From positions 232,670 to 252,669 of the forward strand of contig NOWV01000111.1 in assembly GCA_003344405.1 (NCBI GenBank): a stretch of DNA of 20,000 nt. The letters are read 5' to 3'. The number at the start of each line of letters is the position of its first letter. Within the stretch, counting starts at the first letter, position 1. The translations under genes were made by a program, and so were the position numbers. Origin of the DNA: Trichoplax sp. H2 (lineage: Eukaryota). Positions 337-20,000 of this stretch are shown here, piece by piece. The notes under the pieces are model-generated. The model saw only the letters and a list, made by a program, of their open reading frames with translations, had not been told where the DNA came from and made no database searches.

Positions 337-790
337 TGTTACGATGCGTAAGCTCGTCCTAATTATTGAGTAATATTAAATATTGCTTGTGTGGATTGAC
401 GTTTTATTAATTGTCATTTCTTCATATAATTTGTTTAATCTTTGATTAATATGATAATGCACTAGGAGTTTCTGACGAGACTATAAAAGGCTGGTGCCTG
501 AAGATTCCTTTTTAGTTAGTTAGTCGGTTGGATAGTCAACTAGTTTTTCAATTGATATTTAATTGTAAGACTATAATCTTGGGTGCCAAGATTCCTTCAG
601 TAATAAATGATAGTAAATCTCTGACTATCTCGTCTACATCATCTGTGACGCTATAATTATACCATAGTATTCGGTCGTTGGAACTGAATTATTTGGTGAT
701 ATAGCTAATCTCGCCTCTTTAAGTTAGTAAGTGGCATTCTCCGCAAGGATTGGCGTGTGTAGACTACTTTGTCACTAGTGGTGTGTGACA
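337..790 (+). mobile_element. Solo LTR (454 bp) of an LTR retrotransposon, with 5-bp target-site duplication GAGAT
   Basis: Starts TGTTAC (337) and ends GTGACA (790). Flanked by GAGAT at 332-336 and 791-795. The duplicate segment has a single GAGAT (1419-1423) with the same flanks, i.e. the empty site. Internal TATAAAAG at 482-489 and AATAAA at 602-607. About 458-790 recurs at about 18762-19095. Confidence 0.9.
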
Positions 791-4078: not shown

Positions 4079-4348
4079 GTACAGTCTAGTACTGTACAGT
4101 ACTGTATGAGCTATTTGCCATTTGTCGGAAATTATCTTCGGACGGACGCTAAATATCTCAAAATGAAAACGCTAGCTACAGTACAAAAAATACTCTGGAG
4201 TACAGTACAGTGCTGTACAGTACAGTACTGTAAGGTACAGATGAACGTGTACTGTACTGTACTGTACAGTAGTTGACAGACAGTAGGGTTTTGTGCACTG
4301 TAGCGTACAGTTCAAAGTACTGTACGTGTACAGTACTGTATACTGTAG
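4079..4348. promoter_or_regulatory. Cluster of TACAGTAC/GTACTGTA motifs plus CGGACGGACG; putative promoter of the RBM41 transcription unit
   Basis: Dense TACAG/CTGTA repeats in both orientations just upstream of the first candidate exon (donor at 4469). The same motif mix occurs upstream of PPT1. Promoter function is inferred. Confidence 0.45.
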
Positions 4349-8233: not shown

Positions 8234-10132
8234 TTAAACAAACATTTCTTCAGTGTCGTCTTCACTTTCAGTTAGAAGGGTATTAGCATTGTCCTTCGTA
8301 TCTGTCTTTTTAGAGATATCTTTTGATACTTTGGATATCTACGCGAAAAAAACAAATAAGTGATATAAAACCAGTAAAATGAACTTTACAGATTATTATC
8401 ACAAGTCTATTTACATCAAGTGGTAACATTGAAAATACTGATACGATATGACTAACCGTAATTTCCTGATCAACTTCCATTGCATAATCAACAGTAGGAG
8501 AGACAGCTACCGATCTTCTATCTCGACCTCCTTCTCTCTGAATTCGTTGAAAAAAGTTATTGTTACTCTTTGCCGTTGAGTGCAAATACAACTGATAATT
8601 TACAGGTATCGTACATAATTAAGCCCTAACCGATTTATCCTTATTCGAAACTCTGACATTGGTTTCCCCTTGATCCATGTGAGAGTCAAAATCGAGACTT
8701 AGATGCTTAGTGCCTCTTCTATTTTTCTTTGGCATAACACGTATCCTATCACGCGCAGCGCTATGATTCAGAACAGGTGAACTACTAATTGGCATACCAT
8801 CCTTGTCATACTGTACAGACTCGTCTAAAAATTATGAGCACATAATACAGGATCATCAGCGATTGAAAGCATTATGGTATATCAAGTAAAAGTGTAGCAA
8901 GATCTATAACATCACAATGTGGATCATTAAAAATCGGAATACTACTGTATCCCTTTTAGAAGTGATTCTGCTATTTTGGGACCTACCTTGTTTTTGCTGA
9001 TTCAATAATTTATTCGGCGTTCCTCCATCGCTATTCTGTCTCATAGTCTATAAAAGAATTATTACTCTTAGACGTCAATAATAAAACAACTTAGGACAAA
9101 GCATTTAAGGCATCTTTATTACTACAGCCAAAAAATGAATTTCTCCAACCTGAATCGGTAATTTAACTCCTCTAGGAGGAGTTGCAAACGGGCTCTGAAT
9201 TTTAAGCTTGGCATTTAATTCTTTGGCTATATCGTTACCAAACTGTCGATTTGGTGTTTTTTGTGCGGTTATCGGATTAAATCCGATCGGCTTCTTTGCA
9301 ACAGCTGGTGGAGTCGGTTTTTCATTTGATGGTGAGGAATTTTGGGCTGGCATTTTCTTTCCAAGCAGTGGATTAAAACCGATCGGTTTCTTAGCAATTG
9401 ATGGTGGTGTCGATTTCTCACCAACTGGTGATTCGGGTTGTTCCTAATAGTATGTATCCCCCAAAATGAGTCATTTACTGATAAGTATACCCTACTATCG
9501 GAATAACTAAGGTTTGCTTCGAGTTCCAATATAAAATTACAGGATAAGATATACGTGTAAAGTAACGAAACTGTTCTCAAAAAATTCTACAGACAAATGA
9601 TAAGTTTAAAACCATTGGAAATTTAGCTTTATTATTCGGTTGAAGGATCGAGTTCGTAGGATTACTAAGCAAGAAATTTACTCGATTGCATTAAGTGCTA
9701 TGGTAACGGGATAGAGTCAAATTCGATGAAATACCATGCAGTAAATTTCATTTCGTTCATTGTATTTCACTGTGCAAATCGATTTGTAGTATACTAGACT
9801 CGATGTATGCTTTTCTATTTCCGATTTAATTCAATTCCGTACTTATTACGAACAGTTTAGCTATACATTCAATCATGAAATTGTGCAGTGTAATGTTGGC
9901 GCATTCTAAATCCTTCTTTTAAGTGGGTATATTGAATACAGTACTTATATATAATACTAGTGTATATTCATAATGTCGTATGCTGTGTGCGTTATATCAT
10001 TACAGATGAAAATAAAATAGCTACAAACAGTGGTCATACCGATTGATCAGCTCCACTTCTCCTTTTAAGCTTATCAGCAAGTTCTTTAGAAATATTACTA
10101 CTTAGTAAAGGCATACCACCGGTTGCAGCCAT
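8234..10132 (-). CDS. Uncharacterised 275-aa disordered protein, possible actin capping-protein regulator. Exons 10132-10040, 9443-9150, 9047-8987, 8824-8631, 8537-8457, 8338-8234
   Basis: Five GT-AG introns with consistent phases (0,0,1,0,0) give one open frame, from MAATGGMPLLSSNISKELADKLKRRS to ...LLTESEDDTEEMFV*. It contains two EKxTPPxxAKKPIGFNP repeats, two KELxxKLK motifs and PVLNHSAARDRIRVMPKKNRR. It accounts for parts of ORFs 9105-9353 and 8310-8591. The function is inferred. Confidence 0.8.
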
Positions 10133-13269: not shown

Positions 13270-13875
13270 CGGACGGATCGCACCCTCAGACGGACGGAAA
13301 TCTTTACGAACTGGAAAGTGAGGTCCCGTTCATGTCGAAAAATGATTACTGAGTCGGCAACGTGTGTATCTGTTTTCTAAATTACTGGTACTCCTTTCAA
13401 TAACATTGTCGATCTTATCCAGCTGATTGTATGACAGGGACCTGAGCGTAAAAGGACTTTACGCATTGAGCCATCGTAGAATCTAGTTTGGCACAATATG
13501 GAGGTGGGAAGTGTCTGTCCGTCCAAGAACGATCACTCCAGCGACTGCAGCCTGTACACTGTACAGTACAGCAGACTTCTGTATTACTCTACACTATAGT
13601 TAGATCGATCCAGCATCTGTTAACAACTATCAATACATCGCTGAAATGGCTTATAACGATATGATTTATTATGCATACCACATTGTAATTGCTGAGTTTC
13701 AATTCAAATAATTTCCATTACATAATCAATCATGGAGTAAACGTATCCACTTGGGTGTGGTTCCAATACTGTCAGCGAAAGACTTTACACTGCGCAAGAT
13801 CTTCTTCTACTGTAGTACAGTTCAGTACTACAGTGTACAGTACCGCATATCATGCTGTACAGTGTACAGTACTGT
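13270..13875. promoter_or_regulatory. Putative promoter (possibly bidirectional) upstream of PPT1, with GGACGGA and TACAGTAC motif clusters
   Basis: CGGACGGA at 13270-13277, CAGACGGACGGA at 13287-13298 and a reverse copy at 13513-13524. TACAG/CTGTA clusters at 13552-13571 and 13808-13875. Locally higher GC and CpG content. Confidence 0.45.
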
Positions 13876-13970
13876 GCTTCAAGCTTCTGGTTCTCACTCC
13901 AGTCACATGACTCGGACTCTATCTCCTTTCTGCACTGAACTCAAGAAAAAGAATAACAACAGCCTCCAAG

Positions 13971-14885
13971 ATGGCTAGAGCGCTTCTCTCTCGTAGGATT
14001 TTCTTCTCCATCACCTGGATTTTGCTCGGTTTAACTTGTCATACACAGTCAAGCCCAACGCCTGCTGTCTTATGGCATGGCCTTGGTGACAGCTGCTGCA
14101 ACCCACTGAGCTTAGGGCGCATTCAAAAAGTGATTGAATCCAATGTCAAAGGCATCTATGTCAGATCACTACAAATTGGCACCAATTTTTTCGAGGACAC
14201 CTTCAATGGATATTTCTTAAATGCCAATAAGCAAATTGCTATGGTGTGTGAAAAATTAGCAAAAGATCCCAAGTTAAAACACGGTTATAATGCTGTTGGA
14301 TTCTCTCAAGGGGGACAATTTCTGAGAGCAGTAGCTCAACGCTGTCCTAACCCGCCTATGCGTAATTTCATCTCCATTGGAGGACAACATCAAGGTGTTT
14401 ATGGCTTCCCTCGTTGTCCTGGTAATTCCAGCGAATTATGCAATTTATTACGACAACTTCTGAACCAAGGTGTTTATGTACCATTTATTCAAGATAATGT
14501 AACACCAGCGGAATATTGGCAAGATCCTCTCAATAAGAAAGAATATAAGCAGAAAAGTGTTTTCTTAGCTGATATTAATCAGGAAAGAGGAATCAATGCT
14601 ACTTATAAAAAGAATTTAATGAAGTTATCCAAATTCGTCATGGTTAAATTTGAGAATGATACTGTTGTCCAGCCTAAAGCAAGTGAATGGTTTGGATTCT
14701 ATAAAGAAAATTCAACTTCGGAAACTTTCACTCTCCAACAAAGTCGTTTATATAAGGAAGACTGGTTAGGATTGAAGGCCATGGATCACGCCAAAAAGTT
14801 GGTCTTTCTTAAAACTGAAGGCGATCATTTACAGTTTTCTAATAAGTGGTTTATTCAAAATATCGTCAATCCCTATTTAAAGTAG
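13971..14885 (+). CDS. PPT1: Palmitoyl-protein thioesterase 1, lysosomal, intronless, 304 aa
   Basis: Signal-peptide-like N-terminus followed by [19 protein letters not shown]. Nucleophile motif [17 protein letters not shown], then [41 protein letters not shown] (catalytic Asp) and GDHLQ (catalytic His). Several N-glycosylation sequons. Confidence 0.97.
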
Positions 14886-17268
14886 GGAATGGAGAGATAG
14901 CTTTTGAAGCAATTCTTGCAGTTGATTTACCCTTAAGATAAAATACTCTGTTGTAAATCTATAATCTTGGTAATAGATATTGATTATCCCTACGAAGATA
15001 ACACATCGACGCGTATTTTGCGATTACATCATCGTTTGTCTACATCATATATTAGCTTACGATTTTAGAAGTAACTCTCAACGAACGGGGTTTGCCTGAA
15101 AATGATATCTTTCTAAAGTTTGCTCCAATAGTTGAGTTATCGATCAATACGAGATATGTAGCTAGCCATCGCGATTACTTAACGTCTCGAATTTTATAAA
15201 ATGTCAATTTTCTTAAAAAGTAGTTGTTTTAGCTGACTATTTTATGTTGATAGTATTGGCGTAGCCTACAGTAGTGATCGATTATAAATATGACAATGCT
15301 GCAAGGGTGGTCACAATACTACTGGAATCCTTAGCAGCTCTTTCTTAAAGCGTTGTTCTTCGATATTATATTACTCTATAAGCTTGATGTGGCGCCGTTT
15401 AAAAGATTTCCAAAAGTTTCAAGTTATTTGTATTTTGGCTAACACTGTATAGCGTAGCAACTAAGATAACCACAGCAGCCATAGTGTACATACTGTACTG
15501 TGGTTTAGGTGATTTCGCAATGTTGTTGAAAAAATATATTCTTCACAAATTTACAATACAGAATAAAATGTGAAAAGTATACGTACATGCCTTATGAGTA
15601 TCTACATTTACTACATAATGATTTGCCTATGTGCTATAGCTGAATTAAAGACGAGAGGCTTTTATACACGTCAACAAACGGTATCGTTGCTAAATTAATG
15701 TGGATAGTAGTTCTACTCTTAAAAATCCGAACTTTTTGCTGTTCTAATCATGAAGAGTCGATTATCTATCTGTTCAATGTAAAATTGTAATATTAAAATA
15801 TAATATCTAAAGTTCTGAACACACTTTACATTTCATTCCTAAGCCCGTAGCAGTCCTGAAACGAACTATTTTCAGAAATGTACATGTTGCACAAACTGAC
15901 TCGATATGAATTTGCTTTTTCCGCAGGAAAAGTCAAATAACATTTCATCACCAATATCATCAACTGATCACTAGGTTTTAACTTTGTAAACAGCCTTGTC
16001 CATATCTATCTACTGTACTACGCGTAGAAGTAACTAGTAGCAATACTTTACCGCCGTGGTGGTAAATTAAAACAGATAGTGCAGATGAATTCACATACAG
16101 AAATCGCCTTCGGCGATTTACTAATATCAAGATATAACATACCGTAAAGTTACTGTATAGATCCTATCCTTCAGCTATCAGCCACTCTATTGGACTCCTT
16201 CTAAAGCGGTACCATTACTACATAGGATGCGTTCTTAAACACCAGACAAATTTCAACGGCGTTGACATTAGTATATTTGGAGGTGGAATTTCTCATTTTT
16301 TTTATCAGAGTCTCCTTTACAGCATAGGCTATTTTAGCCAATGGAAAAGTAACCAATAAAAATCATTACGCAGTCAGTAGTTAAACTAACAAGTATCGAC
16401 TAATCTATTTATAATCTAAGCAGCTGGATCCAATGCGTTTATTAATAAATCAAGTAAGATGATACCAGTATTACACGAGTTTTTACTATTCTAAATCACA
16501 GCAGTAAATCGAGATTAATTAGAACTATCATCTACTTTATAAAAGCACTATCGCTACATCCTGACAGTTGCAAGCAGGCTAAGCAATTTTAAAGTTAAAA
16601 AAAGAGACTCGTTAAATCAATCGTAAAGATATTGTGCAGAGCTCTAATACTATGAACCCGCAGTTGAAAATCAGTATACGCGTATATTGGATAAATGCCT
16701 TGCCGTAAATGGTACCAATATCACTTTGTTACAGTTATTTACTGTAACCTGTTGGTTAACACATCCTATTTCTTGCCAGATCCTAGTCAATAGATCAAAT
16801 ATCAGAAGTTATAACTGGACTAATTACTTGTCGCGATCGATCAGTATAAAGCTTTACATTAGGCACTCGTTTTGGAGATTTAATGTTATCCGCAGAATCT
16901 TACGTTAATTAATCACACAACAACCAGATGCGAATACAGTGAAGAAAAAGTTGTGATGAAATTTTTTTAAATTGGGCAAGATTGGACAGAAATATACTAC
17001 TGTTCAATACATTAAATTAAATGTTTCAATGCGAGGACTGCAAGGCTAAAAGTACTGGTTACGCATATTGCGGTGCATTCTAATATACGCAGATATGGAT
17101 GATAATGAATTGAAATTGCAACAAATCTTAATAGTCACTGTGATAATTAAAGTGTTCAAATTTTATCCGGATGAAGCTTTATCGAAATTGACCTAGTGCA
17201 GTAAACATCTCGACTAAGCTTCATGATATACGGTGAAACTAATAATTTGTCCTACACATAAAAGATCG

Positions 17269-17590
<322 letters not shown>

Positions 17591-17629
17591 TCACGCAGTG
17601 CCTTTGCTTCTATCGCACCAGAGTAAGAT

Positions 17630-17661
17630 ACTGTTTAGTGATGAGCTTTTAACCTTAAATA
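17630..17661 (-). promoter_or_regulatory. Candidate core promoter of the beta-thymosin gene (TATTTAA plus Inr-like CAGT)
   Basis: On the minus strand, TATTTAA at 17661-17655 and CAGT at 17633-17630, about 29 nt apart and about 65 nt before the ATG. Confidence 0.4.
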
Positions 17662-18366
17662 GCTATCTAATACGTCTATATTGAACCCCATTTCATTTGC
17701 TTTATCGCTCCCCTTTTCAGAACGTTTCGTGTACTTACAGTATGGCACAATGATGGCGACAATGGGCCTAACGAGGCATAGAAAGTGGAATACAAAAACA
17801 TAAAACATTAAAAGCATTTCATATACGAGTGTAATAGAGAGATTTACAAAGAGATTGGAATTCGCTATGCTTTGGTGTAGCAAGTTATTGAATAGAATTA
17901 TAGAATTATCTACAATATACTAAAGTTATTTTTTTTTTATGAAGTAGTATTCCCTAGAAATTGTTATGACTGGACGTAAGGTCAGAAGAATCCGCAGGCC
18001 GCCTACAACTTTTAAAAATGGCTGATTCCAATACAGCACAGTGCTGTATACTGTTTCAAGGAGTAATTGAAAGTCTGTAATTATGTGATCAGGAATTCAA
18101 TGAATTTTGCCCAAATAGTAGTCTTGAATGATTATAATAGCTACATTAATGCTAGCGAAACTTGTTGATAGAGAGTACCGTAATTTGCGGAATTGCCTCT
18201 AATTATAATTGCTTGTCCATCTTTAACTAAATGATGTTGTTCTTAACCATGGCTTAAGAAAATTTACGTTCACGTTAGCCAGGCTTAATGATCAAATATA
18301 AAATTTACCGAAAAAGATTAAATTAATTAGATGAAGTTAACTATCCTGTTTAGTCTCAAATGTTAC

Positions 18367-19195
18367 TTAATCCTGATCTGCAACAGGTTGTAGCTGAATG
18401 CTCATTTTTTGAACATGTAAATTATATAACATGGCTGCAAATTTAATTGAAGACTCAAGTGCAGTATCTATGCTTGATTCTTCTTCAATAACTGCAGTAA
18501 AATTGGATTAAATTACATATCTAGAAAGGGCAATACTGTCATATACTTCAGTAGTAGTGCCGTATCGCCATCACTTAATAATAATATAATTATAATTATT
18601 AAAAACAATGCTTCTAAAAAGTAGCATGATAATACGCCCACAGTAACATTCAATATCTTAACAGTTACATACCTTCGCTTATTGGCAGTTGTTATATGAA
18701 GTCTTTAATGACAATATTCATAATAATTCCTATAACTTTAAAAGGATACTTTTATATTATGTGCACCGGGAGTTTCTGACGAGACTATAAAAGGCTGGTG
18801 CCTGAAGATTCCTTTTTAGCTAGTTAGTCGGTAAGATAGTCAATTAGTTTTTCAATTGATATTTAATTGTAAAGACTATAATCTTGGGTGCCAAGATTCC
18901 TTCAGTAATAAATGATAGTAAATCTCTGACTATCTCGTCTACATCATCTGTGAGGCTATAATTATACCATAGTATTCGGTCGTTGGAACTGAATTATTTG
19001 GTGATATAGCTAATTTCGCCTCTTTAAGTTAGTAAGTGGCATTCTCCGCAAGGATTGGCGTGTGTAGACTACTTTGTCACTAGTGGTGTGTGACAGCAGT
19101 ACAGTCTTCTCTGCAATCTCAGCGTGCTTGAGTTTGCTGCTATTGAAATTTGCAACTTCACTTGTCGGTAATTTCACTTCAGAGAGAGTTTCCAT
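18367..19195 (-). pseudogene. Second, divergent beta-thymosin-like gene disrupted by a solo LTR. Exon 1 = 19195-19096 plus 18684-18673; exon 2 = 18491-18367
   Basis: Removing the LTR and one TSD copy restores METLSEVKLPTSEVANFNSSKLKHAEIAEKTVLPISE|VIEEESSIDTALESSIKFAAMLYNLHVQKMSIQLQPVADQD* (78 aa). The phase-1 intron 18672-18492 (GTATGT...CTGCAG) is at the same position as in the intact paralogue. Confidence 0.85.
18690..19095 (+). mobile_element. Solo LTR (406 bp), same family as 337-790, with 5-bp target-site duplication GCAGT
   Basis: Starts TGTTAT (18690) and ends GTGACA (19095). GCAGT at 18685-18689 and 19096-19100. TATAAAAG at 18786-18793 and AATAAA at 18907-18912. The 3' ~330 bp is nearly identical to about 458-790. 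Confidence 0.9.
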
Positions 19196-20000
19196 TCTGC
19201 AATGACTACGGTACTTTTCGTGAATGTAAATATTTATATTTAATGCTCAAATCTTACAAATGTAGTGCGCCCTTTAAGAATAATATAGTACTTAGTGTTT
19301 AACTACGTCTCTCTAGAAGCCTTCCGCACTGCGAAGATCTTAAAAGTAGTAAACACTTAAAGAGCCTTTACAAAGTACCATTAAATGATTAGACGACGAC
19401 GAATGATGACTAGAACTAACTCATTGTTATGATAGTTTACTAGTGCACACTACAAATTTACATCAGCTGCGAAGATACTGCAGCAACATGCATTATGTGA
19501 TGCACATACTCCTCGTCATGAAGAAAAGTGGATCTCTTCAACCTGATCCTGATCATAGAAAATTAATATATTTCATCCATTAACATCATAACAATTGTGG
19601 TTTGATTGTCGTCATTCTTGGTAATTAAGTAAAGTTGCCTTCCAACAATAATGTTAACAATAATGTTGGCAGAAGAGGAGCGAGTCATTGTTTCTTTTAT
19701 TCATCTTGAACAACGTATACACCAAATGGCAGATGCTACGGACATTACTCTTCATTATTATCATTATATTATTATGCCTGCAACTGTTGTATATTACGTT
19801 ATGATATAAGGTATACTGCGTTAATAGTATTCACTCTGAATCATGCTAAAATATTCAAAACAACTGACTGTCCACACAATATGTGGCGACCTGGATGGAA
19901 TGGATTCGTCATCTATACGTATGATTTTGTATAGTATTAGAAAAATTCTCTATTTGAGTAGCTATATTAACTATCTGAAGCTTTCCTACTAACATGATAC

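Follow-up and report, generated by a model that had tools for sequence, protein, structure and literature searches.

A polymorphic LTR-type insertion in a diverged tandem beta-thymosin exon of Trichoplax

In a 20,000-nucleotide stretch of DNA from Trichoplax sp. H2 (hereafter the window), an LTR-type element of 406 bp interrupts a first coding exon of beta-thymosin type, and since the site is uninterrupted in other Trichoplax read sets, the insertion has not reached fixation. The probable event is a solo-LTR insertion, still polymorphic, into a weakly expressed and probably relaxed tandem duplicate of a beta-thymosin gene whose canonical copy lies in the same window.

Results

The insertion and its duplication lie within four adjoining features:

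18690-19095, plus strand: LTR-type element of 406 bp, TGTTA...GTGACA, a putative solo LTR (sequence)
18685-18689 and 19096-19100, no strand assigned: target-site duplication GCAGT, 5 bp as read on the plus strand (sequence; read-contig joint)
19096-19195, minus strand: first part of the thymosin-like exon, ATG at 19195-19193, 33 codons to 19097 (Pfam; X17 RNA contig)
18673-18684, minus strand: last 12 bases of the thymosin-like exon, then the phase-1 donor GTATGT at 18672-18667 (X17 RNA joint)

Read on the minus strand, the exon part with the ATG runs into the element (19095-18690), which is followed by the 12 remaining exon bases and GTATGT; on the plus strand the element starts with TGTTATATGA and finishes with GTGTGTGACA. 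The GCAGT copy at 19096-19100 forms the final 5 bases of the exon's first part. Five flank letters match by chance about once in 1024, and the insertion is independently proven by DNA contigs from three runs that connect its two flanks directly. The preliminary description of this DNA had reported a solo LTR in a beta-thymosin coding exon, with the duplication falling in the V-L-P codons. What we found is an LTR-type repeat with a 5-bp duplication in a thymosin-type exon, probably of solo-LTR origin, and excision in silico restored the EK-x-x-L-P motif. With the element and one GCAGT taken out by script, the rebuilt exon measures 112 nt (37 codons and 1 base), is of phase 1 and ends at the GTATGT donor, as had been predicted.

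In the filled allele the frame continues for 28 codons into the element and then meets a stop, 423 bases ahead of the original donor, giving 61 codons in total; the 61-aa read-through product had no exact match in the protein collection. Because the frame stops inside the element, the exon product would be knocked out on the window haplotype.

We then compared the window with public reads. Twenty listed runs from 7 studies cover at least part of 16900-19400, and we examined four of them over 16800-19700: the DNA runs X2, X3 and X12, from 3 studies, and the RNA run X17, all as assembled contigs, which drop rare variants. A contig joint was counted as bridging with 31 letters on its shorter side. 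An X2 contig (depth 18.7) joins 18684 to 19096 with 5 letters that fit both sides, its shorter side being 47 letters long; this agrees exactly with the empty site as predicted. An X3 contig has the same joint, but its shorter side of 25 letters falls under the 31-letter rule. In X12, a contig of 451 letters joins 18689 to 19103, spanning 18469-18689 and 19103-19332 with 221 letters on the shorter side; this empty allele has lost 2 further bases (19101-19102), leaving an exon of 110 nt with the frame shifted ahead of the L-P codons. The uninterrupted site that the preliminary description had proposed to look for is therefore present in contigs of X2, X3 and X12.

The insertion site reads GCAGTACAGTC, and the 2-base loss of X12 falls in the same stretch. 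We rejected imprecise loss of the element as the origin of the shorter X12 allele, as its junction, inspected by eye, has no microhomology. We take the full-length exon form to be ancestral because the spacing from E-K to the splice site is equal in the interrupted exon and in its paralogue, described below. At 18638, about 50 bases from the insertion, all contig depth of X2, X3 and X12 differs from the window's letter, so the window haplotype was not seen among the contigs listed for these three runs. Codon 15 changes from A to E in X2, X3 and X17, and is A in both the window and X12.

Motifs of the LKKTET type form the actin-binding core of beta-thymosins. Against the Pfam Thymosin model (PF01290, curated cut-off 24.8 bits), the 33 codons ahead of the element scored 30.7 bits over residues 12-33, a pass in the search that had been suggested for them. 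Like the G-actin-binding peptides of the beta-thymosin/WH2 group that PF01290 describes, the interrupted exon retains S-K-L-K-H, E-K and L-P, the most conserved places of the family. Its own actin-binding core reads L-K-H-A-E-I, equal to the LKHTET of the neighboring gene at 4 of 6 positions, with both Thr replaced. As a separate observation, a 238-aa protein of the representative library (P0010) consists of five tandem copies of a 21-residue unit, and this unit shares with the interrupted exon the exact 8-residue string T-S-E-V-A-N-F-N, possibly by chance.

The neighbor is a canonical member of the family:

16766-17566, minus strand: canonical beta-thymosin gene, coding exons 17566-17467, 17300-17277 and 16782-16766 (stop TAG)

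Its ATG at 17566 lies 1.6 kb downstream of the interrupted exon, it scores 59 bits against Pfam Thymosin, and a six-frame motif scan identified it as the only other thymosin-like exon in the 20 kb. The first coding exon is 100 nt long and of phase 1, with the donor GTAAAT, and the gene is 76-91% identical to thymosins of distant animals. Once 4 extra N-terminal residues are allowed for in the upstream copy, the two paralogous exons align without internal gaps, with identity at 16 of 33 residues and 60 of 99 bases; they stand in tandem on the same strand, and in both a phase-1 intron follows the same residue, past the L-P-x-x-E stretch. The gapless alignment, the shared residues and the common intron position lead us to conclude that the interrupted exon arose from the canonical gene's tandem duplication and has since diverged. 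The shared intron position, together with use of the donor in RNA, also bears out the earlier placement of GTATGT at a conserved phase-1 site. The copies differ in their core (LKHTET versus LKHAEI), in their Pfam score (59 versus 30.7 bits) and in the 4 additional N-terminal residues of the interrupted exon, which, unlike the neighbor, has no joint to a second exon of the TIEQEK type among the RNA contigs listed.

The canonical gene is abundantly represented in RNA. At depth 2015.5, an X17 contig connects 17467 with 17300 across the canonical intron as predicted, its shorter side counting 25 letters; a loose end of this contig at 17276 carries a motif located at 16765-16779, which leads to the third exon at 16782. 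The three coding exons of this abundant contig give a frame of 46 codons; if the second splice is omitted, the frame stops 43 codons in, at TAA 17271-17269. A colinear contig of low depth (12.4) also spans 16800-17343.

The upstream exon is transcribed as well. An X17 contig of 433 letters (depth 5.96) is colinear with the genome over 19487-19096, continues with ten letters equal to 18684-18675, and then with 31 letters on 17769-17739. This places a junction at 18673|17767 (two letters ambiguous), flanked by GT at 18672-18671 and AG at 17769-17768. Because the ten letters are those of 18675-18684 and the following two agree with 18673-18674, splicing in RNA uses the donor GTATGT. The uninterrupted allele is thus transcribed and spliced from the predicted donor to the acceptor at 17767, not to 18491, where the preliminary description had placed its second exon:

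17739-17767, minus strand: RNA-joined exon sequence, acceptor TTAG at 17771-17768, 29 bases (31 with the two ambiguous letters) (X17)
18367-18491, minus strand: second exon of the preliminary description, open for 41 codons, its start resembling the canonical second exon

Directly past the RNA-joined 17739 lies GTAAGT (17738-17733), a candidate donor. Both X17 contigs begin one 31-letter word left of the 17769/17770 branch, and the start at 17739 may have been set by the assembler. If nothing more is spliced, the upstream transcript has a frame of 67 codons. The TTGCAG ahead of the ATG, earlier taken as a possible acceptor for further upstream exons, is unused in the X17 contig, which is colinear to 19487. 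Depth over the thymosin-like exon is about 300-fold lower than over the canonical gene (5.96 versus 2015.5), contig depth being a poor measure of expression. Further upstream, an X17 contig of 1413 letters (depth 356) lies on 19536-19700 and extends beyond 19700, and we found no long open frame in 19450-20000. This transcript may represent an untranslated end of a neighboring gene with strong expression, in which case read-through from that gene could account for the low-level transcription of the thymosin-like exon.

The splice to 17767 raises the question of what the upstream exon encodes. It could supply the first of two repeats in an unannotated thymosin isoform, one running from 19195-18673 through 17767-17739 and from about 17581 into the canonical ATG. 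X17 shows the joint to 17767, the 29-base exon 17767-17739 would bring the frame to phase 0, and among the 14 AG sites in 17738-17567 only 17581 leaves the frame open, and in register, as far as the canonical ATG; such an in-frame match, however, has a prior of 1 in 3. A 133-aa 'thymosin beta-like' protein of another animal (P0015), a conjoined beta-thymosin, has the same layout: a first unit that lacks the usual end, a linker, and a second unit with its own Met. The layouts are equal only if 17739 joins 17581, and the window's first unit is much more diverged. No contig is listed beyond 17739, where the X17 start may be an assembly effect, and none from X17 is listed on 17545-17672, the range with the candidate boundary at 17581. 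Searches for a long protein with both repeats returned none among 12 matches to the 33-codon query and none among 4 matches to the canonical exon, these 4 being longer proteins with the canonical exon, without the two-repeat form that also holds the diverged one. We consider this isoform unlikely.

The preliminary description had instead reconstructed a working two-exon gene (19195-18673 and 18491-18367) encoding an extended thymosin of 78 aa that was hit recently. Parts of that model stand: exon 1 is restored exactly, an empty allele exists, and joining 18491-18367 reproduces an open frame of 78 codons. At its start, the proposed second exon equals the canonical second exon at 13 of 18 bases, the AG counted; there are 3 other equal sites in 40 kb (both strands), and about 0.02 would be expected by chance in the 300 bases past the donor. 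The start of 18367-18491 is probably what remains of the second exon of the ancestral gene. Against a functional exon, the sole RNA contig listed off the donor goes to 17767 and skips 18491, giving no support to the predicted 18673 to 18491 junction or the 78-aa product. One base at 18445 is missing in part of the depth (11.6 of 26.7 in X2, 22 of 44.3 in X3 and 17.6 of 30.7 in X12), a loss that would end the 78-codon frame at 66 codons. An open stretch of at least 41 codons lies ahead of about 5% of minus-strand positions in 16000-20000, the tail has no Pfam match, and no such protein occurs in the libraries. No X17 depth is present over 18255-18642 among the listed contigs, which alone proves nothing. 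We regard an intact 78-aa gene as quite improbable.

Nor did other comparisons point to a working gene. Among 1.84 billion representative proteins we found none nearly identical to the 33 codons ahead of the element, and the exon occurs in no predicted protein; the 12 matches at E<=0.001 were all multi-repeat thymosins of other organisms with 43-58% identity, the best at 42 bits and 51% identity. Between the upstream exon and its neighbor pN is 0.385 and pS 0.43, a dN/dS of about 0.85 that has little power, coming from 33 codons and a paralogue in place of an orthologue. The preliminary description had named a ratio near 1 as evidence against its model; the value goes in that direction, but with the same limits. 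Most replacements must have fallen on the branch of the upstream copy, since the neighbor is so similar to thymosins of distant animals. The upstream exon has also been disrupted twice independently, by the element and by the 2-base loss that shifts the frame in X12. With the deletion at 18445, the A-to-E replacement at codon 15 and the low depth in X17, these results speak against the working gene that had been proposed, and we infer with moderate confidence that the upstream copy is a spare, weakly used exon under relaxed constraint and not an essential gene. Pure decay would not be expected to leave as much as is retained: the frame is open from ATG to donor, SKLKH, EK and LP are held, the Pfam cut-off is passed, and the donor is still used.

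The element itself has a second copy near the other end of the window:

337-790, plus strand: second element copy, 454 bp, flanked by GAGAT at 332-336 and 791-795

The two copies agree in their first five and last ten bases, have 8 differences over the last ~335 bp, and differ in the first 70-120 bp. Both read TGTTA...GTGACA, that is, TG...CA ends of the TGTNR type, and in neither do the termini form an inverted repeat longer than a few bases. The second copy, too, has an empty counterpart: a single GAGAT at 1419-1423 within the near-identical duplicate 1095-1630. A unit of about 1.09 kb is present twice here, as 9-336 plus 790-1002 and as 1095-1630, at 96-100% identity; an N gap (1003-1022) separates the two units, the first filled and the second empty. 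The repeated unit in 1-1630 may reflect genuine duplication in tandem, or the placement of two haplotypes next to each other in the assembly.

On the plus strand, the 406-bp element contains TATAAAAG at 18786-18793, a TATA box, and AATAAA at 18907-18912. These motifs suggest a plus-strand orientation, antisense to the thymosin exon, and with the variable 5' part they fit a U3-R-U5 layout. The family clearly has many copies: in X2, X3 and X12 the contig depths summed across the element reach thousands against 18-60 in the flanks, a ratio of ~100-600-fold that is not a copy number, and 19015-19041 is covered by at least 18-23 different contigs in each DNA run. All four runs have loose ends at 18692 and 18731, which mark sub-families with different first 40-70 bases, and one sub-family in the reads matches the 337-790 copy. 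In X17, a 1590-letter contig (depth 129) has the final 71 bases of the element at its end, and other sequence comes after them. The ratio of element to background depth is no higher in X17 than in the DNA runs, giving no sign of transcription of the family, and a metagenome scan with the element's last 30 bases returned no matches.

From its ends, duplication length, TATA box with AATAAA, and copy number, the element is most likely a solo LTR. It resembles solo LTRs of the integrase-type LTR retrotransposons (Ty3/gypsy, copia, BEL), a comparison that includes the gypsy-like elements of Trichoplax adhaerens mentioned in part of PMC2871265: it shares with them TGTNR ends, a 5-bp duplication inside their range of 4-6 bp, a length of 400-450 bp, TATA box and AATAAA in one orientation, 5' variability, many copies, and both filled and empty sites. 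In contrast to complete LTR retrotransposons, we saw neither an internal gag-pol body nor a primer-binding site nor a polypurine tract in the window.

A non-autonomous cut-and-paste element, for example of Ginger type, would share the TGTNR termini and a short target duplication. Such ends fit Ginger and LTR elements alike according to a passage of PMC2836005, and a section of PMC6057997 names Ginger as the most frequent family of DNA transposons in two Trichoplax genomes. The right flanks in the reads are heterogeneous (loose ends at 19095/19096, agreement ~0.5), so most copies have no shared internal body after them. However, the same passage of PMC2836005 gives Ginger elements 40-270-bp terminal inverted repeats and, in animals, 4-bp duplications, whereas here inverted repeats do not extend beyond a few bases and both duplications are 5 bp; the TATA box and AATAAA in one orientation and the U3-like variable 5' part also argue for an LTR. 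We therefore rejected a Ginger-type element, which we consider very doubtful. That a high-copy repeat was misassembled into the exon is highly improbable: an N gap and near-identical duplicated segments do occur at the window's other end, and none of the contigs listed in the four runs bridges a junction of element and flank, but a mis-join would create no target-site duplication, and a perfect one of 5 bp lies exactly at the element ends, as it does for the second copy.

Elsewhere in the window, short-repeat runs resembling GTACAGT/ACAGT occur at 4079-4276 and 13555-13885; the ACAGT microsatellite is described in part of PMC2871265 as unusually abundant in Trichoplax. An intronless gene of 304 codons for palmitoyl-protein thioesterase 1 (PPT1; 13971-14882, plus strand) has an exact match in the protein atlas, and its 304-aa frame represents a 90%-identity cluster whose other member is a Trichoplax adhaerens protein, which places the window in a very near placozoan relative of that species. 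A 112-codon frame at 9105-9443 (minus strand) contains the proline-rich motif K-P-T/S-P-P...A-K-K-P-I-G-F-N-P repeated twice, and had no match in Pfam.

Discussion

We suggest the following history for this locus. Tandem duplication would have yielded two minus-strand beta-thymosin genes: a downstream copy (ATG 17566), which remained canonical and very highly expressed, and an upstream copy (ATG 19195), which diverged. On the empty allele the upstream exon is transcribed at a low level, its old phase-1 donor spliced to 17767 and not to the putative relic of its own second exon. The LTR-type element would then have inserted antisense into the L-P codons of this first exon, duplicating GCAGT; loss of the exon product on the window haplotype was presumably close to neutral. 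The three allelic states (intact, 2-base frameshift and LTR insertion) form a natural series bearing on whether the exon does anything, and the old donor of a duplicated beta-thymosin exon has here been re-wired to a new acceptor beside the canonical gene, in an early-branching animal.

Two published surveys describe Trichoplax genomes as quiet, with scarce and inactive transposons. In the portion of PMC2871265 that treats transposons, these make up 0.13% of the Trichoplax genome under the entry 'Active TE: None', and the LTR elements surveyed there are few and degraded; the corresponding portion of PMC6057997 gives 0.11-0.16% for LTR elements and states that transposons did not shape the two Trichoplax genomes. 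We found no paper on thymosin in Trichoplax and none on active LTR elements in placozoans; the supplements of PMC6057997 and PMC2871265 may list the element. Two insertions with empty counterparts suggest more recent movement than these surveys do, present activity not being proven. The family is perhaps still, or was very recently, mobile in Trichoplax, a tentative idea under which related clones or haplotypes would differ in their insertions and exons would be knocked out.

LTR insertions that disrupt genes are textbook knowledge, and a diverged duplicate of a thymosin gene matters little in itself. Yet one 20-kb window holds two copies of the element with intact 5-bp duplications and empty counterparts, one of which differs between read sets. 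The element family thus offers concrete markers with which recent transposition can be tested and clones or haplotypes distinguished, and the main value of the locus is the modest evidence it provides for recent transposon movement in placozoans.
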